NCBI GenBank assembly: GCA_030390025.1
Contig: CM059432.1
Location: 42,906,001-42,970,000 of the forward strand
DNA: 64,000 nucleotides
Origin: Squalus acanthias
Lineage: Eukaryota
Reading direction: 5' to 3'
The notes under the pieces: model-generated
What the model was told of the DNA's origin: nothing
What the model saw: the letters and a program-made list of their open reading frames with translations, nothing else
The model's database searches: none
Made by a program: the position numbers and the translations under genes
Part shown: positions 29,169-62,232 of the stretch, piece after piece
Numbering within the stretch: the first letter of the stretch is position 1
Layout of the letters: the number at the start of each line of letters is the position of its first letter

Positions 29169-29648
29169 TCTTGATCTGATGTAGGCCATCCATGCAGTAT
29201 AGCTCCCATCTATCCTAGAACTGATGCCAATGCCCAACAAAGTGGAATCCCTCTTCCTAATACCACACCTTTTGCCATGTGTTGATTCTCTAACCTTCCT
29301 GTCCTTCCCTACTCTAGCGCATGTTTGCAGACGTAATCCTAAAAAGTAATCCTGCTTGTAAGCTTGTAATAAAAATACATTTCATTAAAGCAGTCATGTA
29401 CTTATTTACCTTCCAGAGAGCCAGAGATACAGAATGTGGAATCTGTGGCCCTGAATTTCCTTGGAGACTGGGGCAGACTTGTAGCAGGTGAGGAAAAATG
29501 GGGTAGGACCAATTAACACTGGGGGGGCGAAATTCAGTTACACCCCATTTGGGGGCAGTAACCGAATTAGCACCGGCTACGGACACGGCAATGGCACACC
29601 CAGCCCAGTCAACCCTGAAAAGTCCTCCTCAACATTGACTCTGGGAAC

Positions 29649-29740
29649 GGTAGCATAGTGGTAATGATACTGGGCTAGTAATCTGGAGGCCTGGACTAAT
29701 GATCCAGATCCAGAAGACGTGAGTTCAAATCCCACTGGGG
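29649..29740 (+). promoter_or_regulatory. tRNA-derived Pol III internal promoter (A and B boxes), LINE copy 1
   Basis: A box TAGCATAGTGG (29651-29661); B box GAGTTCAAATCC (29721-29732). Confidence 0.75.
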
Positions 29741-30009
29741 AATTTAATATCAGTTAATTAAATAAATCTGGAATGAAAAGCTAGTATTAGTAATAGTAAC
29801 CAGGAAACTATCGGATTGTTGTAAAAACCCATCTGGTTCACTAATGTCCTTTAGAGAAGGAAATCTGCTGTCCTTACCTGGTCTGGCCTGTAATGTGACT
29901 CCAGACCCACAGCAATGTGGTTGACTCTTAACTGCCCTCTGAAATGGCCTAGCAAGCCATTGTTACATTTGTTACACTCAGTTGTAACAAACCGCTACGA
30001 AACACATTA

Positions 30010-30488
30010 CAGGAAACTCTTTCGTATCTGGCACCGACGGGACCGGGATGGTGCCGGTTGATTAAAAATTCCGGATAACGGAGAGGTATATCTACCGAGG
30101 CTACTTTTAACAAACAAAAATTAAAAAATCAAGAAATGTGCAGTATAATTGGGTACTCACCTACAGAATGTTGTGTTAAGAGACTACCGGCAGCGCGGGA
30201 GAATCAGACTCCTGTTATTGAGGTGTTCGGATCGGAAGAGACTACCGGCAGCGCGGGAGAGTCAGACTCCTGTTATTGAGATGTTCGGATCGGAAGAGAC
30301 TACCGGCAGCGCCAAAAAGCTGAGTAGTGGCAGTTTGGAGAACTACCCCCACTGACTAACTCGGCCACCGCGGGAGACTCGGACTCGGCAACATTTCCGG
30401 TTATTGAGGTGTTGTATTTGGAGTATGAATTTTGCCGGTTATTAAAGAATTCTGGATATTTAGGTGCCGTTTAAACGAGAGTTTCCTG
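30010..30488. mobile_element. Tc1/mariner (pogo/Tigger-like) MITE
   Basis: TIR caggaaactct / agagtttcctg, TA TSD (30008-30009, 30489-30490); absent from LINE copy 2. Confidence 0.88.
30178..30312 (+). repeat. 58-bp tandem repeat (~2.3 copies) inside the MITE
   Basis: aagagactaccggcagcgc... starts at 30178, 30236, 30294. Confidence 0.92.
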
Positions 30489-33400
30489 TAATAAGAATAA
30501 AACTGGACCGACCACCCGGCATTGACCTTGGCACCAGCCAAGCCCAGCCCAGTCGGCCCTGCAAAGTCCTCCTCACAAACATCTGGGGGCTTGTGCCAAA
30601 ATTGGGAGAGCTGTCCCACAGACTAGTCAAGCAATAGCCTGACATAGTCATACTCACAGAATCATAACTTTCATCGCCATTACCATCCCTGGGTATGTCC
30701 TGTCCCACCGGCAGGACAGACCCACCAGGGGTGGCGGCACAGCGGTATACAGTCGGGAAGGAGTGGCCGTGGGAGTCCTCAACATTGACTCCGGACCCCA
30801 TAAAGTCTCATGGCTTCAGGTCAAGCAGGGGCAAGGAAACCTCCTGCTGATTACCACCTACTGCCATCACTCAGCTGATGAATCAGTACTCCTCCATGTT
30901 GAACACCACTTGGAAGAAGCACTGACGATAGCAAGGGCACAGAATGTACTGTCTGGGTGGGGGACTTCAATGTCCATCACCAAGAGTGGCTCAGTAGTAC
31001 GACTACTGACTGAGCTGGCTGAGTCCTGAAGAACATAGCTGCCAGTCTGGGCCTGCGACAGGTGGTGAGAGAACCAACACGAGGGAAAAACCTACTTGAC
31101 CTCGTCCTCACCAATCTACCTGTCGCAGATGCATCTGTCCAGTATTGGTAGCAGTGAGCACCGCACAGTCCTTGTGGAGACGAAGTCCTGTCTTTACACT
31201 GAGGACACCCTCCATCGTGTTGTGTGGCACTACCACCGTGCTAAATGGGAAAGATTCAGAACAGATCTAGCAGCTCAAAACTGGGCATCCATGAGGCGCT
31301 GTGGAACATCAGCAGCAACAGAATTGTATTCCACCACAATCTGCAGCCTCATGGCCCGGCATATCCCTCACTCTACCATTACCATCAAGCCAGGGGACCA
31401 ACCCTGCTTCAATGAGGAGTGTAGAAGAGCATGCCAGGAGCAGCACCAGGCGTACCTAAAAATGAAGTGCCAACCTGGGGAAGCTGCAACACAGGACTAC
31501 ATGCATGCTAAAAAGCGGAAGCAGCATGCTATAGACAGGGCTAAGCGATTCCACAATCAACGGATCAGATCAAAGCTCTGCAGTCCTGCCACATCCAGTT
31601 GTGAATGGTGGTCGACCATTAAACAACTAACGGGAGGAGGAGGCTCCATGAATATCTCCATCCTCAATGATGGTGGAGCCCAGCACATGAGTGCAAAAGA
31701 CAAGGCTGAAGCGTTTGCAACCATATTCAGCCAGAAGTGCCGAGTGGATGATCCATATTGGCTTACTCCTGAGGTTCTCACCATCACAGAAGCCAGTCTT
31801 CAGCTAATTCGATTCACTCCACGTGATATCAAGAAATGGTTGAGCACACTGGATACAGCAAAGGCTATGGGCCCTGACAACATTCCGCCTGTCGTGTTGA
31901 AGACTTGTGCTCCAGAACTAGCCACGCCTCTAGCCAAGCTGTTCCAGTACAGCTACAACACTGGCATCTATCCGACAATGTGGAAAACTGCCCAGGTATG
32001 TCCTGTCCACAAAATGCAGGACAAATCCAAACTGGCCAATTACCGCCCCATCAGTCTACTCTCAATCATCAGCAAAGTGATGGAAGGTGTCGTCGACAGT
32101 GCTATCAAGCGCCACTTACTCACCAATAACCTGCTCACTGATGCCCAGTAGGGTTTCGCCAGGAACGCTCGGCTCCCAACCTCATTACAGCCTTTGTCCA
32201 AACATGGACAAAGGAGCTGAATTCCAGAGGTGAGGTGAAAGTGACTGCCCTTGACATCAAGGCAGCATTTGACTGAGTGTGTCATCAAGGACCCCTAGTA
32301 AAACTGAAGTCAATCCGAATCGGGGAGGGAAACTCTCCACTGGCTGGAGTCATACCTAGCACAAAGGAAGATGGTTGTGGTCGTAGAAGGTCAATTATCA
32401 CAGCCCCAGGACATCGCTGCAGTAGTTCCTCAGGGCAGTGTCCTAGGCCCAACCATCTTCAACTGCTTCATCAGTGACCTTCCCTCCAACATAAGGTCAG
32501 AAATAGGGATGTTCGCTGATGACTGCACAGTGTTCAGTGCCATTCACAACACCTCAGATAATGAAGCAGTCCATGCCCCGCATGCAACAAGACCTGGACG
32601 ACGTTCAGGTTTGGGCTGATAAGTGGCAGGTAACATTCGCGCCATACAAATGCCAGGCAATGACTATCTCCAACAAGTGAGAGTCTAACCACCGCCCCTT
32701 GACATTCAAATGTATTACCATTGCCGAATCCCCCACCATCAACATCCTGGGGGTAACCATTGACCAGAAATTTAACTGGACCAGCCACATAAATACTGTG
32801 GCAACAAGAGCAGGTCAGACGTTAGCTATTCTGCGGCGAGTGTTTCACTTCCTGACTCCCCAAAGCCTTTCCACTGTCCACAAGGCACAAGTGATGGAAT
32901 ATTCTCCACTTGCCTGGATGAGTGCAGCTCCAACAACACTCAAGATGCTCGACACCATCCACAACAAAGCAGCCCGCTTAATTGATGCCCCATCCACCAC
33001 CTTATACATTCACTCCCTCCACCACCGGCGTACCGTGGCTGCAGTATGTACCATCTACAAGATGCACTGCAGCAACTCGCCAAGGCTTCTTTGGCAGCAC
33101 CTCCCAAACCCACAACCTCTTCCACCTAGAAGGACAAGGGCAGCAGACGCATGGGAACACCACCACCTCCAAATTCCCCTCCAAGTCACACACCATCCTG
33201 ACTTAGAAGTATATCGCCGATCCTTCATCGTCGCTGGGTCAAAATCCTGGAACTCCCTCCCTAACAGCACTGTGGGAGTACCTTCACCACACGAGCTGCA
33301 GCGGTTCAAGAAGGCGGCTCACCACCACCTTCTCAAGGGCAACTAGAGATGGGCAATAAATGCTGGCCTTGCCAGCGACGCACACATCCCATAAAATAAT

Positions 33401-36400
33401 TCAAAACAATTTACCACCCGGGGCGGGAGTACCGCTAAATTGAGCTTACCGCCCTGGCGAGGAAGTGGAGCACTATCTCCGGCGCTCCACTTCCTCTTGG
33501 GGTGCTGCGTTGGGCGCAAAGCACAGTAGCGCCCGAGCACTTCGCAGCCGCTCCACGTAGCATTGTCACGTTTCAGCGCCCCTCCCCTTCTCGGATTCTT
33601 GCAGGCGCTATTAGCGCCCCTGCCCGGGTGATAATCCCTTTGCACCCCCCGGAGGCTCTAACGGCGGGCGTAAAGGAGGCGAATTTCGCCCCCTGGGTGT
33701 CTATAATTCAGCTATGGACATTTCTGCTGTGGCCCTCCCATTCCCTGTCCTGCTGTCACCAGGTGCTTACCTCCAATGTGTTACACCTTGCTGTTTTTCC
33801 TCTGTTTAAAAAATGATAAGGGATGAAAATTAAATAGATAGGTAAAGAGATATCTATATATTATATCAAAAATCTTACTTAGGCCTACACTTGTTTACAA
33901 ACTTGGGGTCAATTTTCACTTCTATTGCCTGACAGGATAGCAGCTTGGGGGGAAATAATGGTGGAGGAAATAAACTAGAGCGGAGGCAAAATATGATGTT
34001 GTGAGAATAGAAATGTGATGGGAAACATACATGGTGGGTAGAGGAGGATGCACATGATGGGAAGCATAGGGAAGGGCATGCAGGCTGGGGTTAGAGGAAC
34101 AGAAGAGGGGTTGGTGGGTCTAATTATTGGATGGAGGGTTAAGTCAGGGAATTGGAGCAGGAACAGAGGGCAAGGGAAGCCACAGCCAATGGTTGGTGAG
34201 AGGAGAGGATGGCCGGTAAGGTGCAAAGCAATGGAAGGATTCATTGCATAAGACGGTACAGGAGAGCGCTGGGTTATGGAGGATACTATGCATCAAAACA
34301 TAATGCAAAGCAAAAAGGGTGAAGAATGCAATAGATGAAGTGGCAAGGGGACAGGAAGCAGTCTGTTACCTGTCACAACAAAGGGGTGGGCTAAAGCAAC
34401 AGGGATAGAGTGAAACAGTAGGGCATATGAAAACAGCCGCCAATGCCTATAAGCAACTGTTTCTCCAACCGTGCCTATAATTTGTTCAATATCATTTTTG
34501 CTAAAGCTATCATTTTTTTCCTATTTATATGTCAAGTAACTAACATTTTATATTCAATGCACAATACAGTACTTAAGCATTGGCATATGGATAAGACAGT
34601 GAAGAAGCCAATGGCTTCTATTGCACAAACCAGTGTGAGAAACAGTGCTCTTACCTTCCCACAAAATATTGGTATTTGGTACATAAACAAATTGTAAATC
34701 ATATATATCTTGCATGCAGTGCTTTGATTCATGTTCTTGTCATTGTGATACCAGGAATGTGTGAGGGGAGCATTTATTTGTTTCATTGTTTAATGTGTTA
34801 GTTTAGTTTGATGCAGTATAAGAGGTCACCTGGCATTGACAGTGCTGCATTTTGATTGGTCAGCCAATGGCATGATTTATAATGCATCCTTAACACTCAA
34901 CCTATGGAGCAAAATCAGTTGTAAATCTTGTTTTAGTTTTAAAGGGTTAAAACCTTGTCTGATTAACAGTGCCTGGCCCCATTGCTGGTTTACATTTACT
35001 AAATTGCTCTGGAGAGTGTGATGTGTTCTTTTTTTGACATTCCAATAGAGAGACTGCTTGTATGTTATGACCTGGTTTGATTTACTGTTAGAAATGAAAA
35101 GTGCTATAATTTGTGTAAGACATTTGTTGTGAATGCCAAAAAATGTTTTGTGGCTTCATTGGTATCCATCTGGTTTTATTTTTATTGTGTTTGAGTCACA
35201 TGAAATGTTGCTTAGCTGTCTTCATTTTTATTAGTCAGTATTGATTTATGGCTTTCAAAGTAAAAATAATTGGTCTGCATATGACTTACTTTACAGCTCT
35301 TGTCCAAGAGGAATGTGAGTGGCTGGAAAAGGAGTCTAAACAGCAGGAATGTCTTACAGTACACACTTTGTGAAAAAAAGCAGTCCTCCATTTCTGCTTC
35401 ATTGTGTATTTGTTTAACAGGCGCCTCCTTGACCGTTTGTGATGCTGCAGATCTCTGCTGCCGAGCACTTGTGTATACCATGCTAGAATGGTCATGTAAC
35501 ATCTAAAGCGAGTGCACTCTAAAAAATGGATAAGCATTCTTACCTGCGCTGTTCTACATGTTCTTTTTACTTTACCAATGGAAAATTCAAGGACATTTTA
35601 ATTATACATTTTATTTATGACTGCTAACAAGAGAAGAAAGTTGATTTTTTTCCATGCTGTATTTGATGAATTCCCAGCCTAAGTGAGTTCTTCCAGCCTT
35701 AACTTTAAAGACATCTTGTATTGCATGACAGTTCATAACATAAATCTATCTACATCTAACTTAGGAGTTGTACTGTGCTGAATCTTTATGTTCAAAGAAG
35801 TAGCTATAGCATGGTTGACTTCCTAGCTATGGTCTGGATTCAAACTCTCATCTCCGAGGGAAATAGGTGATGAGAGAACTTAGCACTCTGTCTGACTGGG
35901 TGTAATATCCTGCGTATTTTCCAAATGCTGTTTCTGTATTTAAAGTGCTTGAAGTAATACAGACTCTGAAAAAATTTGGTCATGATTTGCACACCTAGTG
36001 GGAACTTTCTCATGGGATCTGATTCAAAGAATGAGTTGCTGTCTTTGTTTTGGTGATAAAACTGAAGAGCACTAATAATGGCAAGTTGCAGTGTTTATCC
36101 CCGTTTACACTAGTTGGCAGGACCCTTACTGGTTGCTTAACTGTAGGTATTGTTGCCCTGTGATCAGAACTGTTCTAGTTCAAATTACAATCACAGTGGG
36201 GGCAGCTTAGCTGTTTGATAATGGTGCATGCATGTGCAGCACAGCCCAGCTATCAGGTAGTGGGTCATTTTTGTATTTATATGCTGGGAATGCTGTGCAC
36301 ACTACTAATATTGGCAGGATTCCAGTACTATTTTTATGCCATCTCACTGTTGATACTCAAAAGGTATTGGCTTGACTAGTTTAATGCCCGCAGTACAGGT

Positions 36401-46500: not shown

Positions 46501-46611
46501 TAAAACACTAGTTAGGCCACAGCTAGAGTACTGCGTACAGTTCTGGTTACCACATTACAGGAAAGATGCGATTGCACTAGAGAGGGTACAGAGGGGATTT
46601 ATGTGGATGTT

Positions 46612-48667
46612 TTTAAAAATTCGTTACTGGGTCTGGGCATCGCTGGCAAGGCCGGAATTTATTGCCCATCCCTAATTGCCCTTGAGAAGGTGGTGGTGAG
46701 CCGCCTTCTTGAACCGCTGCAGTCCTTGTGGTGAAGGTACTCCCACAGTGCTGTTAGGGAGGGAGTTCCAGGATTTTGACCCAGTAACGATGAAGGAATG
46801 ACGACATATTTCCAAGTCAGGATGGTGTGAGATTTGGAGGGGATCTTGGAGGTGATGGTGTTCCCTTGCACCTGCTGTCCTTGTCCTTCTAGGTGGTGGA
46901 GGTCACGGGTTTGGGAGGTGCTGTCGAAGAAGCCTTGGCGAGTTGCTGCAGTCCAACAACTGCAACTATCTTTCTTTGTGGTAGGTATGACTCCAACCAG
47001 TGGAGAGTTTTGCCCCCTGATTCCCATTTATTTCAATTTTACTAGGGCTCTCTGATATCAAGAGCAGTCACTCTCATCTCACCTCTAAAATTCAGCTCTT
47101 TTGTCCATGTTTGGACCAAGGCTGTAATGAGGACTGGAGCCGAGTGGTCCTGACGGAACCCAAACTGAGCATCAGTGAGCAGGTTATTGGTGATTAAGTG
47201 CCATTTAATAGCACTGTCGACGACACCTTCCGTCACTTTGTTGATGGGGCAGTAATTGGCTGAATTGGATTTGTCCTGCTTTTTGTGGACAGGACATACC
47301 TGGGCAGTTTTCCACATTGTCGGGTGTTGTAGCTGTACTGGAACAGCTTGGCTAGAGGCGTGGCTAGTTCTGGAGCACAAGTCTTCAACACGATAGCCGG
47401 GATAGTGTCGGGGCCCATAGCCTTTGCTGTATCCAGTGCGCTCAGCCATTTCTTGATATCACGTGGAGTGAATTGAATTGGCTGAAGACTGGCTTCTGTG
47501 ATGGTGGGGACCTCAGGAGGAGGCCGATATGGATCATCCACTCTGCACTTCTGGCTGAAGATGGTTGCAAACGCTTCAGCCTTGTCTTTTGCACTCGCGT
47601 GCTGGGCTCTGCCATCATTGAGGATGGGGATATTCATGGAGCTTCCTCCTCCCGTTAGTTGTTTAATTCTCCGCCCACATTCACGACTGGATGTGGCAGG
47701 ACTGCAGAACTTTGATCTGATCCGTTTATTGTGGAATCGCTTAACTCTGTCTATAGCATGCTGCTTCTGCTGTTTAGCATGCATGTAATCCTGTGTTGCA
47801 GCTTCCCCAGGTTGGCATCTCATTTTTAGGTATGCCTGGTGCTGCTCCTGGCATGCTCTTCTGTACTCCGCATTGAACCAGGGTTGGTCCCCTGGCTTGA
47901 TGGTAATGGTAGAGTGAGGGATGTGCCGGGCCATGAGTTTACAGGTTGTGATGGAATACAATTCTGCTGCTGCTGATGGCCCACAGCGTCTCATGGATGC
48001 CCAGTTTTGAGCTGCTAGATCTGTTCTGAATCTATCCCATTTAGCACGGTGGTAGTGCCACACAACATGATGGAGGGTGTCCTCAGTGTGAAGACTGGAC
48101 TTCGTCTCCACAAGGACTGTGCAGTGGTCACTGCTACCAATGCTGTCATGGACAGATGTGTCTGCGACAGGTAGATTGGTGAGGACGAGGTCAAGTAGGT
48201 TTTTCCCTCATGTTGGCTCTCTTACCATCGGCCGCAGGCCCAGTCTGGCAGCTATGTCATAGAAACATAGAAACATAGAAACATAGAAACTAGGAGCAGG
48301 AGTAGGCCATTCGGCCCGTCGAGCCTGCTCCACCATTCAATACGATCATGGCTGATCATCCAAATCCAGTACCCTGTCCCTGCTTTCTCACACAGAATCC
48401 CCATCGAGCCTGCACCGACACATATCCCACCCTATCCCCGTAACCCCACATATTTAATTCCCCCTAACATATCCCATCCTATCCCTGTAACCCCAAGTCT
48501 ACACACCCGTATCTAAGGAGGTCCTTCAGGACTTGGCCAGCTCAATCAGTAATGGTGCTACCGAGCCACTGTTGGTGATGGACATTGAAGTACCCCACCC
48601 AGAGTGCATTCTGTGCTCTTGCTACCCTCGGTGCTTCTTCCAAGTGATGTTCAACATGAAGGAATAC
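46612..48667 (-). mobile_element. tRNA-headed LINE family, 5'-truncated and internally deleted copy
   Basis: ORF 47233..48111 near-identical to 31096..32151; 12-bp TSD TA(T/C)GTGGATGTT (46600-46611, 48668-48679); deletion near 46950. Confidence 0.9.
48259..48519 (-). mobile_element. Short CR1 3' tail with scrambled 5' junction
   Basis: atagaaac repeats plus CR1 3' UTR, followed by duplicated fragments; host reads through gctatgtc|cttcagg. Confidence 0.75.
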
Positions 48668-49589
48668 TACGTGGATGTTGCCAGGACTGGAGAATTTTGG
48701 CTATGAAGAAAGATTGGATAGGCTGGGGTCATTTTCTTTGGAACAGGGAAAAGTTCAGAGTGGAAGTGAAAAAGAAGATAAGAGGGGCAAAGAGAGGGTA
48801 TGAGAATAGATTGGCAGCTAACATAAAAGGGAATTCAAAAGCCATCTATAGGCATATAAATAATAAACAGGTAGTAAGAGGCGGGGTGGGGCCGATTAGG
48901 GAGCAAAAAGGAGACCTACGCATGGAGGCAGAGGGCATGGCTGAGGTACTAAATGAGTACTTTGCATCTGTCTTCACCAAGGAAGAACATGCTGCCAAAG
49001 TTATCGTGAAAGAAGAGATACTGGATGTGATAAAATTTGATACAGAGGAGGTACTAAAAAGGCTGGCTGTACTTAAAGTTAATAAGTCACCAGGACCGAA
49101 TGGGATGCATCCTAGGATACTGAGGGAAGTTAAGGAGGAAATCGCAGAGGTACTGGCCATAATCTTCCAATCCTCCTTAGATACGGGTGTGTTGCCAGAG
49201 GACTGGAGAATTGCAAATGTTACACCCTTATTCAAAAACGTGTGTAAGGATAAACCCAGCAACTACATGCCAGTCAGTTTAACCTTGGTAGTGGGGCAGC
49301 TTGTAGAAACGATAATCAGGAACAGAGAGACCTGGGGGTATATGTACACAAATCATTGAAGACGGCAGGGCAGGTTGAGAAAGCGGTTAAAAAAGCATAC
49401 GGGATCCTGGGCTTCATGAATAGAGCTATAGAGTACAAATGCAAGGAAGTTATGATGAACCTTTATAAAACACTGGTTCGGCCTCAATTGGAGGATTGTA
49501 TCCAATTCTGGGCACTGCACTTTAGGGAGGATGTGAAGGCCTTATAGAGGGTGCAGAAAAGATTTACGAGAATGATTCCAGGGATGAGG

Positions 49590-52500
49590 TAGCATAGTGG
49601 TATTGTCACTGGACTAGTAATCCAAAAGCCTAGATTAATGATCCAGAGAATGTGAGTTCAAATCCCACCATGACAGCTGGGGAATTTAAATTCAGTTAAT
49701 TAAATAAATCTGGAACAAAAAGCTAGTATTAGTACCCATCTGGTTCACTAATGTCCTTTAGGAAATCTGCCTTCCTTACCTGGCTCTGTCCTATATGTGA
49801 CTCCAGACCCACAGTACTGTGGTTGACTCTTAACTGCTCTCTGAAATGGCCTAGCAAGCGAGTCATAGATTTATCCAGCACAGAAAGAGGCCCTTTGGCC
49901 CATCGTGTCCACGCCGGCCATCAAGCCCTGTCTACTCTAATCCCATTTTGCAGCACTTGGTCCGTAGCCTTGTATGCTATGGCGTTTCAAGTGCTCATCT
50001 AAATACTTCTTGAATGTTGTGAGGGTTCCTGCCTCTACCACACTTTCAGGCAGTGAGTTCCAGATTCCAACCACCCTCTGGGTGAAAAAGTTTTTCCTCA
50101 AATCCCCTCTAAACCTCCTGCCCCTTACCTTGAAACTATGCCCCCTGGTTATTGATCCCTCTACTAAGGGGAAAAGTTCCTTTCTATCTACCCTATCTAT
50201 GCCCCTCATAATTTTGTACACCTCAATCAGGTCCCCCCTCAGCCTTCTCTACTCTAAGGAAAACAACCCCAGCCTGTCCAGTCTCTCTTCATAGCTGAAG
50301 CGCTCCAGCCCAGGTAACATCCTGGTGAATCTCCTCTGCACCCTCTCCAATGCAATCACATCCTTCCTATAGTGTGGCGACCAGAACTGCACACAGTATT
50401 CCAGCTGTGGCCTTACTAGCGTTTTGTACAGCTCCATCATAACCTCCCTGCTCTTATATTCTATGCCTCGGCTAATGAAGGCAAGTATCCCATATGCCTT
50501 TTTAACCAGCTTATCTACCTGTTCTGCTGCCTTCAGGGATCTATGTACATGCACACCAAGGTCCCTCTGATCCTCTGTCCTTCCTAGGATCCTACCATTC
50601 ATTGTGTATTCCCTTGCCTTGTTAGTCCTCCCAAAATGCATCACCTCACACTTTTCAGGGTTAAATTCCATTTGCCACTGTTCTGCCCATCTGACCAACC
50701 CGTCTATATCGTCCTGTAGCCTGAGGCTTCCCTCCTCGCTATTTACCACTTCACCAATTTTCGTGTCATCTGCGAACTTACTGTTCATACCTCCTACATT
50801 CATATCTAAATCATTAATGTACACTACAAACAGCAAAGGACCCAGCACCGATCCCTGCAGTACACCACTGGACATAGGCTTCCAGTCACAAAAACAACCT
50901 TCGACCATCACCTTTTGCCTCCTGCCACTAAGTCAATTTTGGATCCAATGTGCCAAATTGCCCTGGATCCCATGGGCTCTTACCTTCTTGACCAGTCTCC
51001 CATGCGGGACTTTGTCAAAAGCCTTACTGAAGTCCATGTAGACTACATCAACTGCATTACCCTCATCCTCACACCGAGTCACCACCTCAAAAAATTCAAT
51101 CAAATTGGTTAGACATGATCTCCCCCTGACAAAGCCATGCTAACTATCCTTGATTAATCCTTGCCTCTCCAAGTGGAGACTAATTCTGTCCCTCAGAATT
51201 TTTTCCAATAATTTCCCTACCACTGATGTTAGGCTCACTGGCCTGTAATTCCCTGGTTTATCCCTACTACCCTTCTTGAATAATGGTACTACGTTAGCTG
51301 TCCTCCAGTCCTCTGGCACCTCCCCTGTGGCCAGAGAGGTTCTGAAAATTTGTGTCAGAGCCCCTGCAATCTCTTCCCTTGCCTCACACAACAGCCTGGG
51401 ATACATCTCATCTGGGCCTGGGGATTTATCCACTTTTAAGTCCGCTAAAACCGCTAGTACCTCCTCCCTCTCAATACTAATTTGTTCAAGTATATCACAA
51501 TCCCCCTGCCTGATTTCTATGCCTACATCGTCCTTCTCCATAGTGAACACAAATGCAAAATATTCATTTAAAACCTCACCCACATCTTCGGCTCTACACA
51601 CAGATTGCCACTTTGGTCCCTAATGGGCCCTACTCTTTCCCTGGTTATCCTCTTGCCCTTAATATACTTATAAAACACCTTGGGATTTTCCTTTATTTTG
51701 CCCACCAGTGTTTTTTCATGCCCCCTCTTCGCTCTCCTAATTTCTTTTTTAATACCCCCCCTGCACTTTCGATACTCCTCTCGGGCTTCCACTGTTTTTA
51801 GTCCTTTGTATCTGCCAAAAGCCTCCCTTTTTTTCCTAATCCATTCTTGTATATCCCTTGACATCCAGGGTTCCCTGGGCTTGTTGGTCCCACCCTTGAC
51901 CTTTACGGGAACATGTTGGCATTGTACTCTCTCTATTTCCTTTCTGAAAGACTCCCACTGCTCTGATGTGGATTTTCCTACAAGTAGCTTATCCCAATCC
52001 ACTTTGGCCAGATCCTGCCTTATTATATTAAAATCGGCCTTCCCCCAATTTAGAACCTTTATTTCCGATCCATCTTTGTCCTTTTCCATGACTACCTTAA
52101 ATCTCACCAAATTATGGTCACTGTCACCAAAATGCTCTCCTACTGACACTTCTACCACTTGCCCGGCTACATTCCCTAGAAATAGGTCCAGTATCGCCCC
52201 CTCTCTTGTAGGACTTTCTTCATGCTGGCTCAAAAAGCTCTTCTGGATGCACTTTAAGAATTCCGCACCCTCTAAGCCTTTCACACTCTGACTATCCCAG
52301 TTAATATTGGGGAAGTTGAAATCCCCTACTATTATTACCCTATTATTTCGACATTTCTCTGAGATTTGCCTGCATATCTGTTCCTCTATCTCCCCCTGAC
52401 TGTTTGGGGGCCTATAGTACACTCCCAGCAAAGTGCTTGCCCCCTTTTTGTTTTTAAGTTCTACCCATATGGCCTCATTAATGGAACCTGCTAAGATATC

Positions 52501-55500
52501 ATCCCTCCTTACAGCAGTAATTGACTCCTTGCTTAATATTGCGACACCCCTCCTCTTTTACACCCCCCTCTGTCTCGCCTGAAGATTCTATACCCCGGAA
52601 TATTGAGCTGACAGTCCTGCCCCTCCCTCAACCATGTCTCTGTGATAGCAACAATATCATACTCCCATGTGTTCATCAACACCTTCAATTCATCTGCCTT
52701 ACTCGCAAGACTCCTTGCATTAAAATAAATGCCATCCAGCCTTGCCATACTCCCTTGTGCATACATATTTGCTCTGCCTTCCAGGCTGACTTGTTTTTTC
52801 CTCTATATTTGGCTGTGCATCACCCCCTACTATAGCTCCACTCCGTATCCCATCCCCCTGCCAAGTTAGTTTAAACCCCCCCCCAACAGTACTAGCAAAC
52901 CTCCCCGCAAGGATGTTGGTCCCGTTCCGGTTCAGGTGCAACCCGTCCGACTTGTACAGGTCCCACCTTCCCAAGAAGCAGACCCAGTGATCCAGGAAAC
53001 TAAAGCCCTCCCTGCTGCACAAACTCTTTAGCCACGCATTCATCTGCTCTATCCTCCTATTTCTATACTCACGAGCACATGGCACCGGGAGTAATTCAGA
53101 GATTACCACCTTTGAGGTCCTGCTTTTTAATATGCTACCTTGCTCCCTAAATTCTTGTTGCAGGACCTCATCCCTCTTTCTACCTATGTCGTTGGTACCA
53201 ATGTGAACCACGACCTCTGACTGTTCGCCCTCCCCTTCAGAATGCCCTGCAGCCGTTCAGTGACATCCTTGACCTTGGCACCAGGGAGACAACATACCAT
53301 CCTGGAGTCACGTCTGCGGCCACAGAAACGTCTATCTGTTCCCTTTACGATAGAATCCCCTATCACTATTGCTCTCCCACTCTTTTTCCTCCCCTCCTGT
53401 GCAGCTGAGCCACTCGTAGTGCCACGGACTTGGCTCTTGCTGCATTCCCCTGAGAAACCATCTCCCCCAGCAGTATCCAAAAAGCAGTTGTAACAAACCG
53501 CTACGAAACACAATAATAATAATGAAACCGGACGGATCACCCGGTATCAAACTCGACACCGGCTACAGACACGGCAACGGCACACCCAGCCCAGTCAACC
53601 CTGCAACGTCCTCCTCACCAGCATCTGGGGACTTGTGCCAAAATTGGGAGAGCTGTCATACTCACAGAATGCCCCAATGTCCCAAACTCCTCCATCACCA
53701 TCCCTGGAAGAACAGACCCACCAGAGGTGGCAGCACAGTGGTATACAGTCGGGAAGGAGAGGCCATGGGAGTCCTCAACATTGATTTCGGTCAAGCATGG
53801 GCAAAGAAACCTCCTGCTTATTACCACCTACCACCCTCCCTCAGCTGATGAATCAGTACTCCTCCATGTTGAACACCACTTGGAAGAAGCGCTGAGAGTA
53901 GCAAGGACACAGAATATATTCTGGGTGGGGGACTTCAATGTCCATCACCAAGAGTGGCTCGGTAGCACCACTACTGACTGAGCTGGCCGAGTCCTGAAGG
54001 ACATAACAGCCAGTCTGGGCCTGCGACAGGTGGTGAGAGAACCAAAACGAGGGAAAAACCTACTTGACCTTGTCCTCACCAATCTATCTGCATCTGTCCA
54101 TGACAGTATTGGTAGCAGTAGATTCAGAATAGATCTAGCAGCTCAAAACTGGGCATCCATGAGGCGCTGTGGGCCATCAGCAGCAGCAAAATTGTATTCC
54201 ACCACAATCTGTAACCTCATGGCCCGGCATATTCCTCACTCTACCATTACCATCAAGCCAGGAGACCAACCCTGGTTCAATAAGGAGTGCAGAAGAGCAT
54301 GCCAGGAACAGCATCAGGCATACCTAAAAATGAGGTGCCAACCTGGGGAAGCTGCAACACAGGACTACATGCATGCTAAAAAGCAGAAGCAGCATGCTAT
54401 AGACAGGGCTAGGCGATCCCACAATCAACGGATCAGATCAAAGCTCTGTTGTCCTGCTACATCCAGTCTTGAATGGTGGTGGACCATTAAACAACTAATG
54501 GGAGGAGGTGAAGGCTCCATGAATATCCCCATCCTCAATGATAGTGGAGCCCAGCACGTGAGTGCAAAAGACAAGGCTGAAGTGTTTGCAACCATCTTCA
54601 GCCAGAAGTGCCAAGTGGATGATCCATATCGGCCTCCTCCTGAGGTCCCCACCATCACAGAAGCCAGTCTTCAGCCAATTCGATTCACTCCATGTGATAT
54701 CAAGAAACGGCTGAGCGCACTGGATACAGCAAAGGCTATGGGCCCCAACAACATCCCGGCTATCGTGCTGAAGGCTTGTGCTCCAGAACTAGCCACGCCT
54801 CTAGCCAAGCTGTTCCAGTACAGCTACAACACTGGCATCTATCCGACAATGTGGAAAACTGCCCAGGTATGTCCTGTCCACAAAAAGCAGGACAAATCCA
54901 ATCCAGCCAATTACTGCCCCATCAGTCTACTCTCAATCATCAGCAAAGTGATGGAAGGTGTCGTCGACAGTGCTATCAAGCGGCACTTACTCACCAATAA
55001 CCTGCTCACTGATGCCCAGTTTGGGTTCCGCCAAGACCACTCGGCTCCCGACCTCATTACAGCCTTGGTCCAAACATGGACAAGGGAGCTGAATTCCAGA
55101 GGTGAGGTCAGAGTGACTGCACTAGAAATCAAGGCAGCATTTGACCGAATGTGGCATCAAGGAGCCCTAATAAAACTGAAGTCAATGGGAATCGGGGGGA
55201 AAACTCTCCACTGGCTGGAGTCATACCTAGCACAAAGGAAGATGGTTGTGGTGGTTGAAGGTCAATCATCACAGCCCCAGGACATCAGGGCAGGAGTTCC
55301 TCAGGGCAGTGCCCTGGGCCCAACCATCTTCAGCTGCTTCATAAGCGACCTTCCCTCCAACATAAGGTCAGAAATGGGGATGTTCGCTGATGACTGAACA
55401 GTGTTCAGTGCCATTCACAACTCCTCAGATAATGAAGCAGTCCATGCCCGCATGCAGCAAGATGTGGACGACGTTCAGGCTTGGGCTGATAAGTGGCAGG

Positions 55501-56293
55501 TAACATTCGCGCCACAGAAGTCTCAGGCAATGACTATCTCCAACAAGCGAGAGTATAACCACTGCCCCTTGACATTCAACGGCATTACCATCACCAAATC
55601 CACCACCATCAACATCCTGGGGTCACCATTGACCAGAAACTTAACTGGACTAGCCACATAAATACTGTGGTAACAAGAGCAGGTCAGAGGCCAGGTATTC
55701 TGTGGTGAGTGTCTCACTTCCTGACTCCCCAAAGCCTTTCCATCATCTACAAGGCACAAGTAAGGAGTGTGATGGAATATTCTCCACTTGCCTGGATGAG
55801 TGCAGCTCCAACAACACTCAAGAAGCTCGACACCATCCAGGACAAAGCAGCCCACTTGATTAGCACCCCATCCACCACCTTAAACATTCACTCCCTCCAC
55901 CACTGACGTAATGTGGCTGCAGTGTACACCATCTACAAGATGCACTGCAGCAATTCGCCAAGGCTTCTTCAGCAGCACCTCCCAAACCCACGACCTCTTC
56001 CACCTAGAAGGACAAGGGCAGCAGGCACATGGGAACACCACCACCTCCAAGTTTCCCTCCAAGTCACACACCATCCTGACTTAGAAGTATATCGCTGATC
56101 TTTCATCGTTGCTGGGTCAAAATCCTGGAACTCCCTGCCTAACAGCACTGTGGGAGGACCTTCACCACACGGACTGCAGCGGTTCAAGAAGGCAGCCTAC
56201 CATCACCTTCTCAAGGGTAATTAGGGATGGGCAATAAATGCTGGCTTTGCCAGCGACGCCCTCATCCCATAAACAAATTTAAAAAATTTTTAA
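49590..56293 (+). mobile_element. tRNA-headed, ORF1-less CR1-clade LINE, copy 2 (head 49590-49860, body 53485-56293)
   Basis: A box TAGCATAGTGG, B box GAGTTCAAATCC (49654-49665); 455-aa RT ORF 54030..55397 ending MFADD; TSD atgagg/atgcgg (49584-49589, 56294-56299). Confidence 0.9.
49862..53482 (-). mobile_element. CR1 LINE, 5'-truncated (ORF1 esterase plus ORF2 EN-RT)
   Basis: VIGDSIVKG..HIGTND..DGLHLN; YFNARSL..ITETW; YRPP..GDFN..SDH; KFADDTK; few stops or frameshifts. Confidence 0.95.
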
Positions 56294-58915
56294 ATGCGGG
56301 TCTTCAGTTACGTGGATAGTCTAGAGAAGCTGGGGTTGTTCTCCGTAGGGCAGAGAAGGTTGAGAGGAGATTTGATAGAGGTATTCAAAATCATGAGGGG
56401 TCCAGACAGAATAGATAGAGAGAAACTGTTCCCATTGGCGGAAAGGTCGAGAACCAGAGGACACAGATTGAAGGTGATCGGCAAAAGAAACAAAGGCGAC
56501 ATGAAGAAAAACTTTTTTACGCAGCGAATGGTTAGGATCTGGAATGCACTGCCTGAGAGGGTGGTGGAGGCAGATTCAATCATGGCTTTCAAAAGTAAAT
56601 TGGTTAAGTACCTGAAGGAAAAAAAATTGCAGGGCTACGGGGAAAGGGCGGGGGAGTGGGACTAGCTGAAGTGCTCCATTAGAGAGCCAGCACGGGCTCA
56701 ATGGGCCGAATGGCCTCCTTCTGTGCTGTAACCATTCTATGATTCTATGATTCTAACAGAGGAGGCTGAGGGGAGACTTAATTGAGGTGTATAAGATTAT
56801 GAGGGGCCTAGATAGAGTGGACAGGAAGGACCTACTTCCCTTAGCAGCGGTCAATAACCAGGGGGCGGTGATTGAAAGTAATTGGTCGAAGGATTAGAGG
56901 GGAGTTGAGGAGAACTTTTTTTCACCCAGAGGATGGTGGGGGTCTGGGACTTACTGCCTGAAAGGGTAGTAGAGGCAGAAACCCTCATTGCATTTACAAA
57001 ATACTTGGATATGCACTTGAAGTGCCGTAACTTACAGGGCTACAGACCAAGAGCTGGAAAGTGGGATTAGGCTGGATAGCTCTTCTTTGGCCGGCACAGA
57101 CACGATCGGCTGAATGGCCTCCATCTGTGCTGTAAATTTCTATGATTCTATGATTTTATCCCCCTGTTCCCCATCTCCATTCAAAATTTACCATTTCAGG
57201 TGTACTTCGTTTTCATGACATCAGTCTACAAAGGACTGTGTCTGTTACTTATTTGCTTATCCTTTAGCCTTTTTATGTACTCTTGCATTCTTTCACAATT
57301 CTTGTTGCAATTTGCCATACCCTCCAAATTGATGTCTTCAGCAAATTTTGATATTGCTCTCTCAATTCCTAAATCCATATTATTTATATGCATAATAAAT
57401 AACAGCGACACCAATACAGACCCCAATAGAACATCACTCACTACATCTTACTCGTCGAAGAAGCAGCCCTTTAATGCTGCCCTTTGCTTTCCGACCTCCA
57501 CTCACCTCTCTATCATGTGGCCACATTCTCCTCAATTTCATGCGTCATCATCTCTTATCAGGTAACTTATCAAATATTATAAACCACATCCATTATCTGT
57601 ATACACTGCTAATTCTATAAGGTTGCTGAAGCATAATCTGCCTTTTAGAAATCCATGTTGAGTGGCCCTGATTAATTCAAGCTTTTTAATTTCATCCATA
57701 TTATAAGCTCTAGAGTGTAAAGCTTTCCGCCTTCCCCACATCGATTTTTTGGGGGGCAAATCTGAGGTGGACAAATCTGGCAAATCTGTCTGCTCAGTGA
57801 AAGCTGTGCCCATTGTACACCACATGCTAATGACATGGCCTCTCTGGCATTTCCTGCCATTTGCACTCTTTGAATGCTGGACGCACGGACCATCGGTTAG
57901 GCCTTGGCATCCAGCATTCAGTGATTGGCAGAAGATATAGATAAAGAGATGTTTCTCAGACTGAAAGAAAGTCTCACCCTATAAAGGCATGACTCCCTGT
58001 GAGTTAGTTATTGCAGGCCAGAAGCATAGCCAAGGTCAGTGGGGCATCTCAGGAATGAATGGCAAATCCACGCTGCCAGAGGTGTGGCCTATTTAAAGTG
58101 GGTGGGCAGAGGACAGAAAGGCTAGGCTTAGTTCTTTAACAACTAAAATAAGACTAATTGGCCTATGATTTCTTGCCTTATGCCAGTATCCTTTTCTTCC
58201 AGGCAGGTTAGCTTAAAATTATTCCAATTGCATCTGCTAATTCTGCTAACCTGTCTACATCCTTCTGACGTGTTCAGCAGTCATCCTTGCTGTTTGCCAA
58301 ATCCCTCACTTTTGTGACGTCAGAAAATTTCAGTATTGTGCTCCAGATCCATAGTTTTCAGACTGTCAACCAACTTTCTATTCATGCTATTACATTTCCT
58401 GTTATATCAAATGCCTACATTTTTGTAACCAGCTTCCTGAGACACCTTATTGAATCTCCCTATTTACCCACAGAACTCTATTCTTTTATGGACTCGCTTT
58501 TTAACCTTACAGGAATATATAAAAGTTGTATTCTGTACATCTCATATTTGAAGATTCTTCACTACTAATTTGTTGTTTGCTAACATTTTTGGCCAATTAA
58601 ATTGGACCATATCCCTTCTTATCTCACTGAAGTCTGTGTTCTTACAGTCCAGCACCCTTATTTTTGATAGCTCATTGACCTTTGACAGCAGCAGCAGCAG
58701 CGGCGGCAGTGCGGACCTGGGAGGAGCGGCGAGGCGGCGACGGTACCAACTCAGAACCGGCAGAATTTTCAACAAGTGACGTCCGAAGTCAAAAGTGATG
58801 TCGGCACAAGGGGAGGGAGCTGATTGGTGAGTATCTGGTAAGTGTTTATACTTGGCTTTCTTAGAGTTTTAAGTTTATTCCAGCTAGATTAGTAAATAGT
58901 CTGTTAATTAGAGGT

Positions 58916-59868
58916 ATGGCAGGGCAGCTCACACCCGTGGAATGCACATCCTGTGCCATGTGGGAAGTCCTGGACACCTCCCGTGGTCTGGGTGACCACA
59001 TGTGCGGGAAGTGTCGCCAGCTACAGCAGCTCGAGCACCGGGTTACGGAGCTTGAGCGGCGGCTGCAGTCACTGCTGTGCATCCGCGAGGCTGAGAGCTA
59101 CGTGGACAGCACGTTTCGGGAGGTGGTCACCCCACAGCTGAAGAGTGTGCAGGCAGAGAGGGAATGGGTGACCGCCAGACAGAAGAGGAGGACCAAGCAG
59201 GTAGTGCAGGAGTCCCCTGAGCCCATCTTGCTCACCAACCAGTATTTGGTGCTGAGTACTGGTGAGGGAGATGGTTCCTCTGGGGACTGCAGCCAGAGCC
59301 AAGTCCACAGCACCATGGAAGGCTCAGCTGCACAGGGGGTGGGGGGAAGAGGAGAGGGAGAGCAATAGTGAGAGGGGATTCAATAGTTAGGGGAGCAGAC
59401 AGGCATTTCTGCGGCTGCAGATGTGACTCCAGGATGGTATGTTGCCTCCCTGGTTCCAGGGTCAAGGATGTCACTGAACGGCTGCAGGGCATTCTGAAGG
59501 GGGAGGGTGAACAGCCAGAGGTCGTGGTCCATATCGGTACCAACGACATAGGTAGAAAGAGGGATGAGGTCCTGCAGGCAGAGTTTAGGGAGCTAGGAAA
59601 GAGGTTAAAAAGCAGGACCTCAAAGGTAGTAATCTCCAGATTACTACCAGTGCCACGTGCTAGTAAGTACAGAAATAGGAAGATAGAGCAGATGAATGCG
59701 TGGCTGGAGAGATGGTGTAGGAGGGAGGGCTTTAGATTCCTGAGGAATTGGAACCGTTTCTGGGGGAGGTGGGACCTCTGCAAGCCAGACGGGTTGCACC
59801 TCAACGGGAACGGGACCAATATCCTTGCGGGAGGGTTTGTTAGTGCTGTTGGGGAGGGTGTAAACTAG
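58916..59868 (+). pseudogene. CR1 ORF1 (zinc finger, coiled coil, SGNH esterase), frameshifted
   Basis: CTSCAMW..CGKC, LEHRVTELERRL, GDSIVRG, HIGTND, DGLHLN. Confidence 0.9.
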
Positions 59869-59999
59869 CTTGGCAGGAGGATGGGAACCTAAGAATAGAG
59901 TCAATAGGGAGGGAAGAAAAACTGGAATTGGAAAACAAAAACGTAGAAAGTAAATTGGAAGGACAGCGGAATCAAGGGCTAGATAGTAGTCAACAAGGA

Positions 60000-62010
60000 G
60001 GTTTGCCTGTACTAAATGGTATATACTTCAATGCAAGGAGTGTAGTGAACAAAGCAGATGAGCTGAGGGTACAGGTAGATACTTGGGACTATGATATTAT
60101 AGCTATTACAGAGATAAAAGGGAGGGTTATGACAGATACCGAGGGCTAAATACTGCAGAATCTTTAGAGGAGTACAGAAAGTGCGGGGGTGCAATTAAAA
60201 AGGATATTAGGAAAGCAAAGAGAGAGCATGAAAAATTCTTGGCACGTAAAATCAAGGAAAACCCAAAGATGTTTTATAAATATATTAAGAGTAAGAGGAT
60301 AACTAAAGAAAGGGTAGGGCCTATTAGAGATCATGAGGGTAATCTGTGTGTGGAGGCAGGAGACGTCGGTAGGGTTCTTAATGAATACTTTGCGTCTGTT
60401 TTCACAAAGGAGAGGGGCGAAGCAGACATTGCTATCAGGGAGGAGGAGTGTGAAATATTAGATGAAATAAACATAGTGAGAGAGGAAGTATTAAGGGGTT
60501 TAGCAGCTTTAAAAGTGGATAAATCCTCAGGCCCGGATGAAATGTATCCGAGGCTGCTAAGCAAAGCAAAAGAGGAAATAGGAGAGGCCCTGACCATCAT
60601 TTTCCAATCTTCTCTGGTTTCAGGTGTGGTGCCGGAGGACTGGAGGACTGCTAATATGGTACCCTTGTTTAAAAAGGGAGAAAAGGATAGACCGAGTAAT
60701 TACAGGCCAGTCAGCCTAACCTCGGTGGTGGGAAAATTATTGGAAAGAATTCTGAAGAACAGGATAAATCTTCATTTGGAAAGACACGGATTAATCAAGG
60801 ATAGTCAGCACGGATTTGTTAAGGGAAGGTCGTGTCTGACAAACTTGATTGAATTTTTTGAGGAGGTAACAAGGAGGGTAGATGAGGGTAGTGCATTTGG
60901 CGTAGTGTATATGGACTTTAGCAAGGCTTTTGATAAGGTTCCACATGGCAGACTGATCACGAAGTTAAAAGCCCATGGGATCCAGGACAAAGTGTCAAGT
61001 TGGATTCAAAACTGGCTCGGAGGCAGGAAGCAGAGGGTAATGGTTGATGGGTGTTTTTGTGACTGGAAGGCTGTTTCCAGTTGGGTTCCGCAGAGCTCAG
61101 TACTAGGTCCCTTGCTTTTTGTGGTATATATCAATGATCTAGACTTGAATATAGGGGGTATGATTAAGAAGTTTGCAGATGATACTAAAATTGGCTGTGT
61201 GGTTGATACTGAAGAAGGAAACTGTAGACTGCAGGAAGATATCAATAAATTGGTCAGGTGGGCAGAACAGTGGCAAATGGAATTCAATCCGGAGAAGTGT
61301 GAGGTAACGCATTTGGGGAGGGCTAACAAGGAAAGGGAATACACATTAAATGGTAGGACACTGAGTAGTGTAGAGGAACAAAGGGACCTTGGAGTGCATG
61401 TCCACAGATTCCTGAAGGTAGCAGGCCAGGTAGATAAGGTGGTTAAGAAGGCATACGGAATGCTTGCCTTTATTAGCCGTGGCATAGAATACAAGAGCAG
61501 GGGGGTTATGCTTCAACTGTATAAAACACTATTTAGGCCTCAGCTAGAGTACTGCGTGCAGTTCTGGTCACCACATTACAGGAAAGGTGTGATTGCACTA
61601 GAGAGGGTACAGAGGAGATTTACAAGGATGTTGCTGCAGTAGAGAATCTTAGCTATGAGGAAAGACTGGATATGCTGGGTCTGTTTTCCTTGGAACAGAG
61701 GAGGCTGAGGGGAGACCTTATTGAGGTGTATAAAATTATGAGGGGCCTAGATAAAGTGGATAGAAAGGACCTATTTCCCTTAGCAGAGTGGTCAAAAACC
61801 AGGGGGCACAGATTTAAAGTAATTGGTGGAAGGTTTAGAGGGGATTTGAGGGGAAATTTCTTCACCCAGAGGGTTGTGCGGGTCTGGAACTCACTGCCTG
61901 AAAGGGTGGTAGAGGCAGAAACCCTAACCACATTTAAAAAGTACTTGGATGTGCACTTGGGATGCTGTAACCTGCAGGGCTACGGACCAAGAGCTGGGAA
62001 GTGGGATTAG
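60000..62010 (+). pseudogene. CR1 ORF2 (endonuclease mostly deleted; RT intact over 467 aa)
   Basis: YFNARSV..IAITE then deletion near 60115; ORF 60239..61642 with YMDFSKAFDKV and KFADDTK; frameshift ~61640. Confidence 0.92.
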
Positions 62011-62232
62011 GCTGGATAGCTCTTTGTTGGCCGGCGTGGACACAATGGGCCAAAATGGCCTCCTTCCATGCTGTAACTTTCTATGATTCTATGACTCGAC
62101 TTTCATATAGAAACTATGTTGTGTTTGCTATTTTCCAATTCTTCATCTACTCTCACATAAGATTTTGTTCCAATTCATTTCCTGGAACTAAATCAAGCAG
62201 TGCTTCTTTCCCTGCTGGATTATAAAGATATT

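Follow-up and report, generated by a model that had tools for sequence, protein, structure and literature searches.

A tRNA-derived head on a shark Zenon LINE and its probable transcription by RNA polymerase III

Whether a long interspersed nuclear element (LINE) that encodes its own enzymes can be a template for RNA polymerase III (Pol III) is the question raised by a locus of Squalus acanthias. LINEs are usually taken to be transcripts of Pol II (or read-through transcripts of Pol I), and Pol III heads are a mark of non-coding short interspersed nuclear elements (SINEs). The locus is a stretch of 64 kb (contig CM059432.1, positions 42,906,001 to 42,970,000, in the 3.7-Gb assembly GCA_030390025.1), hereafter the window. 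It contains two copies of one LINE family that share a head derived from transfer RNA (tRNA) and a leader, and whose endonuclease (APE) and reverse transcriptase (RT) bodies are ~91% identical. Judging from the sequence, the family is probably an autonomous Zenon-clade LINE transcribed by Pol III from the tRNA-derived head. On balance, we also favour the wider view that, since the common ancestor of sharks and rays, this autonomous protein-coding retrotransposon has been transcribed by Pol III throughout, with terminators purged over 3.3 kb down to the choice of codons and amino acids, translation free of cap and AUG, and repeated birth of SINEs by internal deletion.

The head and its insertion with the LINE body

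The head of copy 1 (29642..29737, + strand) consists of the 5' sequence GGGAACGG, an A-box (29650-29660), an anticodon-like arm followed by a tandem second arm, and a B-box (29721-29732). In copy 2 the A-box lies at 49590-49600, and the arm CTGGA-CTAGTAA-TCCA is common to both copies. A first-pass annotation of the window had recognized the boxes, the arm and the common leader in both insertions, and the sequence bears this out. It had also let both insertions begin at the same point (29649 and 49590); the true 5' end of the element lies instead ~8 nt upstream of the A-box, at 29642 in copy 1, and copy 2 has lost its first ~6 nt. This end falls at about the 5' end of a mature tRNA (tRNA position -1/+1).

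The head is no longer a tRNA: the boxes are retained, and the cloverleaf and the acceptor stem are lost. ARAGORN called no tRNA on the head, and its Rfam tRNA score of 17.9 bits is below the cut-off of 29. When four tRNA isotypes of the genome were compared, the older, unduplicated head aligned best to tRNA-Gln (z 8.7, 51/75) and the younger head to tRNA-Ser (z 7.7), with Gln and Ser both beating Lys and Cys. tRNA-Ser had been the leading candidate parent until Gln was added to the comparison and scored higher for the older head. Both boxes are kept in all seven published elasmobranch Zenon consensuses, from five species, the stingray B-box being one base short (by eye). The Zenons of hagfish and coelacanth, inspected by eye, have no head and carry runs of four or more T (T4+) within their first 400 nt.

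Two side observations concern tandem repetition. At one locus (L038, ~870-1290) an extended tandem array has grown out of the 21-nt duplicated head arm. Elsewhere (G000:C21 at ~3.34-3.41 Mb, G000:C29 and C2208), matches to the tRNA-Gln pattern recur in long tandem series at ~0.6-kb spacing, as do tRNA-Lys(TTT) genes at ~1.8-kb spacing.

A majority sequence built from 11 two-ended copies is 3.3 kb long, with a leader of ~240 nt and a single 973-codon open reading frame (ORF) that opens at nt 330. No ORF1 was found in it, and the body comprises APE and RT, so that the first-pass annotation was right about the missing ORF1; of the ~350-nt leader that it described, the sharing between copies stands, while the length gives way to a frame opening at about nt 330. 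The first 400 nt of SquAca_Zenon-1 match the element almost letter for letter (by eye). The elasmobranch Zenons of PMC13343379 (SquAca_Zenon-1/2/3, CarCar, HypSab, RhiTyp and ScyCan_Zenon-1) are the same family, 3.3 kb long, without ORF1 and with A tails, and the seven shark and ray consensuses in its table all begin with the head (first 400 nt compared). By sequence, then, the family is the already catalogued elasmobranch Zenon of the CR1 group, A-tailed and with a single APE and RT ORF, in agreement with the earlier label of Zenon-type. This settles the earlier query about cataloguing in one half: the sequence is in the consensuses, but the head goes unmentioned in the text. The main text of PMC13343379, as available, has no mention of tRNA, promoter, polymerase, head or start codon. 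A quick RT tree of 22 rows, built without a named Zenon, groups the element with unnamed database relatives (SH-aLRT, an approximate likelihood-ratio support value, 99) and places it apart from the CR1 of the window (32% identity).

Shared changes in the ORF outside CpG comprise 52 synonymous and 36 non-synonymous ones, and this synonymous excess shows that the source elements were under selection for their protein. The copies are 2.5-8% diverged from the majority of their own subgroup. As a side observation, two sevengill-shark gene models (P0001 and P0026) include pieces that are 81-86% identical to the LINE ORF, one of them inside an aldo-keto reductase model; these overlaps are possibly mis-annotation or exonisation.

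The head belongs to the autonomous element and inserts jointly with the body. An exact 33-mer from the start of the endonuclease has 4,250 matches in the genome, of which the first 60 by position were taken unselected. Thirty-six of these copies extend to element position 13 or less, 26 of them to position 1, with one duplicate pair and one doubtful placement among the 36. The others begin at 41-44 (2 copies), end or are interrupted inside the leader (18), or do so inside the start of the ORF (4). In the 31 two-ended copies over which upstream flanks were compared, all flanks differ, one duplicated pair excepted.

We further looked for empty sites in 31 long copies, a set from which two had been dropped beforehand and to which the two window copies had been added. 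Host repeats rejoin across head, body and tail in 7 of the 31. Their junctions show overlaps (6 bp at most), small deletions or, on the 5' side, a few additional bases. The test was informative for these 7 and for 2-3 of 8 short copies, the others being without a usable empty-site relative. In copy 2 the host CR1 rejoins across the insertion with a 6-bp overlap, confirmed by uninterrupted host copies, and the near-perfect 6-bp target site duplication (TSD) reported for it earlier matches at 5 of 6 positions. Sought as direct repeats, TSDs were mostly not visible in the copies and are short or absent in most. Joint insertion upholds the earlier claim that the head travels with the LINE.

Other loci agree with this. 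Although the leader had been described as running directly into the APE-RT frame in the window, copy 1 is split there by a 479-bp element and copy 2 by a 3.6-kb CR1; the uninterrupted leader-ORF junction is seen at other loci and is identical in dozens of loci and in five species. Head variants follow ORF variants by subfamily. The top 30 matches to a query of head plus leader, a search that favours long forms, comprise 28 long and 2 short forms. Contigs of four other organisms contain head, leader and endonuclease start, loose ends from leader to tail being listed for two of them.

Terminators, tail and translation start

The shortest Pol III terminators are TTTT and TVTTT (PMC8466645). If Pol III has to read 3.3 kb, the sense strand should be without terminators, and on the sense strand of the 11-copy majority sequence the counts of TTTT and TVTTT are 0 and 0. 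Windows with four T in five positions number 1, versus 20.9 expected in a base shuffle (0/1000) and 10.0 in a dinucleotide shuffle (P=0.001); in the ORF alone there is 1 such window versus 9.5 expected when synonymous codons are shuffled (P=0.0035). The equivalent windows for A and C occur at normal frequency, and the antisense strand is normal too (73 windows versus 78 expected).

The deficit separates the family from other elements. The ratio of observed to expected T windows is 0.05 in the majority sequence and has a median of 0.18 and a maximum of 0.54 in 70 aged copies, versus a minimum of 0.59 and a median of 1.17 in 45 metagenome relatives (longer than 1.5 kb, with sequences containing N dropped). 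In the same genome, the copies have 0.25 T4 per kb versus 4.96 in CR1 and 2.31 in L2 pieces, and the two CR1 copies of the window are enriched in T windows. The Phe content of the ORF (1.8%) is lower than in all 94 full-length relatives.

The behaviour of short T-runs in the copies was also examined. A T3 of the leader (element 210-212, at ~29850 of the window) is expanded to T4-T6 in 10 of 86 copies, and the other six T3 sites show expansion in 1 of 346. Five copies with the expanded T3 are scattered and unrelated on a tree, and therefore no T4 lineage has spread. Single-base changes that create T4 in copies amount to 1.2%, versus a background of 1.5%, as expected from decay after insertion. 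It may also be recorded that this T3, a putative site of polymerase or RT slippage, expands in 12% of copies and other three-base runs in <0.5%. Among 80 metagenome relatives, many of whose contigs may not reach a 5' end, one match resembling A- and B-boxes lies upstream of a distant LINE (L218, 370-430); the T-runs of that LINE are normal and the match is probably due to chance.

At the 3' end, AATAAA is retained in 99 of 102 tails. Of 111 tails, 21 have T4+ at the extreme 3' end, whereas 6 have it in the 22 nt that come next. The T-runs, 1 to 8 long, gather immediately before the A tail, 3' of AATAAA, with T1 the commonest (49).

The 973-codon frame has no in-frame start AUG, and its first in-frame Met is near residue 285. 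Across five species, conservation of the frame sets in with an Ala-Thr/Lys-Lys motif, at a GCT codon, and the residues ahead of it are not conserved (by eye). Since there is no usable AUG and conservation begins at the Ala motif, a non-AUG, cap-independent start is likely, which would fit an uncapped RNA; we have moderate confidence that the RNA is uncapped and starts translation near the Ala-Thr-Lys motif. Translation by way of upstream ORFs was rejected, because 26 of 52 copies have ATA in place of the out-of-frame ATG at element 358, and an earlier ATG in the leader shifts frame between species (by eye). The copies with ATA form a lineage with an open majority ORF, which is separated from that of the other group by 22 synonymous and 16 non-synonymous differences.

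How ribosomes could start on such an RNA has a possible parallel in the type 6 internal ribosome entry sites (IRESs) of viruses, which often start at GCU beside a pseudoknot that mimics an anticodon (PMC12221177). An IRES-like start for LINEs is raised in PMC3894237, where cap- and AUG-independent LINE translation is left open. Just 5' of the frame of our element is a hairpin with a 7-nt loop like the Ala anticodon loop. Base pairing between this loop and the first of the conserved codons, GCT, would be possible, and two sets of three older copies each hinted that loop and codon had changed together. The specific candidate, a pseudoknot of the dicistrovirus intergenic-region (IGR, type 6) kind, was rejected on the finding that 0 of 15 G-loop copies have the matching downstream C (first 100 of 158 matches, by eye). 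No Rfam IRES matched the element, RNAalifold returned no structure on the leader, and only a 3-bp match remains for the pseudoknot. We keep an IGR-IRES-type pseudoknot as a lead with a slim chance of being correct.

Short derivatives, rival explanations and related elements

An exact 29-mer of the leader has 5,282 matches in the genome. Of the first 30, examined unselected, 14 read on into the ORF, while the other 16 skip to the 3' tail, the point of departure varying among them. The short forms carry varying pieces of both ORF ends. They are short and non-coding as SINEs are, whereas the long form has its 973-codon ORF. A junction-pattern search gave 422 exact matches, and three recurrent junctions account for 44, 25 and 15 of the first 100 (by eye); with three types thus covering 84 of these 100, several short forms have spread on their own. 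Deletions of at least 200 nt are found in 19 of 59 long copies, mostly with overlaps of 1-10 nt, and the older subfamily is mostly short with some long members. In the shark genome, internal deletion of the LINE appears to have produced the SINE-like short forms, with template jumping as a moderately supported source of the deletions. The earlier suggestion of an autonomous retroposon that captured a SINE head is right in that the head is part of an autonomous element; what was first captured may have been a tRNA or a SINE, and the short forms of this genome look LINE-derived by deletion.

In the mechanism that we propose, Pol III would transcribe the full 3.3 kb from the head with its A- and B-boxes. 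Transcription would end at the T-run in the tail and be followed by polyadenylation, a step for which the case is weak, and translation of the uncapped RNA would begin at a codon other than AUG. Internal deletions, likely during copying, would yield the short head-plus-tail SINEs.

Several observations weigh against Pol III transcription of the long form. The argument for it consists of sequence signatures, which are strong but indirect. The A-box begins at +9 of the element, nearer the 5' end than is usual in SINEs. Plain T4 counts are weak evidence (P=0.016 for the base shuffle, 0.20 for the dinucleotide and 0.12 for the codon shuffle), the dinucleotide shuffle shows a slight shortage of G windows too (P=0.03), and at four-fold sites A, like T, avoids an identical neighbour. 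The clade of the nearest relatives, which have 45-50% RT identity, provides one DNA control, L193, with 17 T4 runs. T-runs before A tails can grow after insertion, as seen in old B2 copies (PMC8466645). None of the 60 copies has an intact ORF, the longest being 581 codons. The folding energy of the leader is ordinary (z about -0.4), and neither leader stability nor the pseudoknot explains by what route an uncapped RNA would be translated.

Alternatively, the long RNA could be a Pol II product, started in the leader or arising as read-through, with Pol III serving only the short derivatives and U-runs being avoided for other causes such as pairing with the A tail, RT slippage, or RNA decay or splicing signals. 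Pol II transcription is the rule for LINEs (L1: bioRxiv 2025.02.02.635956), AATAAA and the A tail suit Pol II processing, and the RT of this family seems prone to jumps. It is also the case that Pol III RNAs are without the cap that normal translation requires. We nevertheless regard a Pol II origin as unlikely, since it leaves unexplained a loss that includes TVTTT-type terminators, is strand-specific and ORF-wide, and is absent in the 45 relatives and in CR1 and L2 of the same genome; cap-dependent scanning would have no AUG available, and a 5' end so sharply placed, at tRNA position -1/+1, speaks against read-through. That same end would suit a head that acts as an RNA-processing signal (an RNase P-type cut) and sets the 5' end of read-through RNAs, in the manner of the self-cleaving ribozymes of R2 and RTE, and members of other LINE clades are known to process their own 5' ends (PMC5786205). 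Such a role is highly improbable, because the head has neither the cloverleaf fold nor the acceptor stem and RNA processing would give no selection against T-runs in the body.

The head could also be foreign to the LINE, if the long copies were one-off chimeras in which independent SINEs lie beside, or were template-switched onto, head-less LINEs. One-off tRNA/L1 chimeras do occur in primates (bioRxiv 2025.02.02.635956), short and long forms that share the head are equally common, and the scarcity of TSDs would be in keeping with such an origin. Yet one leader-ORF junction recurs across loci and species, the head co-varies with the ORF by subfamily, host repeats rejoin across the complete unit, and what the short forms retain of the ORF ends varies, as expected of deletions. 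We give chimeras hardly any credence, and they are already largely refuted.

Transcription of the long form by Pol III, if true, would give a natural 3.3-kb Pol III RNA that yields an enzyme of ~960 residues, a rare Pol III messenger. The 240-nt leader would be a defined place to test cap- and AUG-independent LINE translation. Deletion from a LINE already headed, at many independent breakpoints, is a second route of SINE birth. The strand-specific terminator statistic offers a cheap screen of repeat libraries for similar LINEs.

The nearest precedent for a headed LINE is the statement in PMC5786205 on RTE-1_DAn and relatives (Repbase), LINEs with tRNA-like sequence that matches SINE2 heads. 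They differ, in a comparison made by description only, in belonging to the RTE clade, and the tRNA-like sequence is treated there as noise, its position and function not being given. tRNA-derived SINEs, including the mammalian T+ SINEs B2, Dip and Ves (PMC8466645), likewise have a head with A- and B-boxes, AATAAA, a variable T-run and an A tail; these SINEs are short and non-coding, with the T+ kind reported only in mammals, whereas the long form in the shark encodes APE-RT. Persaeus, a lepidopteran Zenon derivative (PMC6740152), is likewise a short form that joins 5' and 3' ends by deletion. It lacks both homology to tRNA and a Pol III promoter, whereas the shark derivatives inherit one and have many breakpoints. 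Cassandra, Helenus and Ajax, which belong to the TRIMs (terminal-repeat retrotransposons in miniature; PMC10886601), are non-SINE retrotransposons with a Pol III promoter derived from a small RNA, but they are of the long terminal repeat type and non-autonomous. Among shark SINEs, HE1 (partner HER1; PMC3747384) and SacSINE1 (L2 tail; PMC5499810) have tRNA heads and LINE-derived tails. HE1 is a V-SINE and SacSINE1 a Deu-SINE, and the short form, with its Zenon tail, is probably neither.

A search of the literature, which covered sources other than Repbase, Dfam and SINEBase entries and subscription journals, returned no account of an autonomous LINE that Pol III transcribes, nor of the tRNA head on Zenon. 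In the available text of PMC13343379, terminator loss, the missing AUG, SINE derivatives and the head were not found described. The family is thus known, and the head, the terminator loss, the missing AUG and the SINE offspring are apparently undescribed in the literature searched.

The window and its other features

Both window copies are decayed, and each is interrupted just past the leader. In copy 1 the leader and the opening codons of the ORF frame (29738..30009, +) are followed by the later insertion (30010..30488), a TA-flanked element of 479 bp with terminal inverted repeats and 58-nt tandem repeats. The single APE-RT ORF then continues at 30489..33349 (+), disrupted by stops and frameshifts, up to the 3' tail with AATAAA and an A-rich end (33350..33409, +). 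Copy 1 has no identifiable TSD. Directly before its head lies a patchwork of 75 nt drawn from the same family (29569..29641, +), in which element 392-456 is joined to 670-688; this is likely the product of a template jump during insertion.

Copy 2 lies within a host CR1, with its left TSD at 49584..49589 (+) and its right TSD at 56294..56299 (+). Its head and leader (49588..49859, +), in which the second arm is partly deleted in addition to the lost 5' end, are separated from the broken APE-RT body and 3' tail (53485..56293, +) by the nested antisense CR1 (49860..53484, -). A third copy of the family (46608..48668, -) is 5'-truncated, internally deleted, interrupted and head-less, and two 3' fragments of the family are also present.

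The insertion at 30010-30488, whose terminal inverted repeats are 30 nt long, has related pieces in three other loci (L051, L133 and L142); it is a putative Tc1/mariner-like miniature inverted-repeat transposable element. Copy 1 itself appears to be nested in another element with short inverted ends, GGGGCGAAATTC ... GAATTTCGCCCC (29525-29570 and 33405-33692), for which no empty-site relative was found among the loci examined. The nested CR1 at 49860-53484 (-) matches a further CR1 copy at 58865-62090 (+), and both carry a GDSL-esterase ORF1, which is ordinary in vertebrate CR1.

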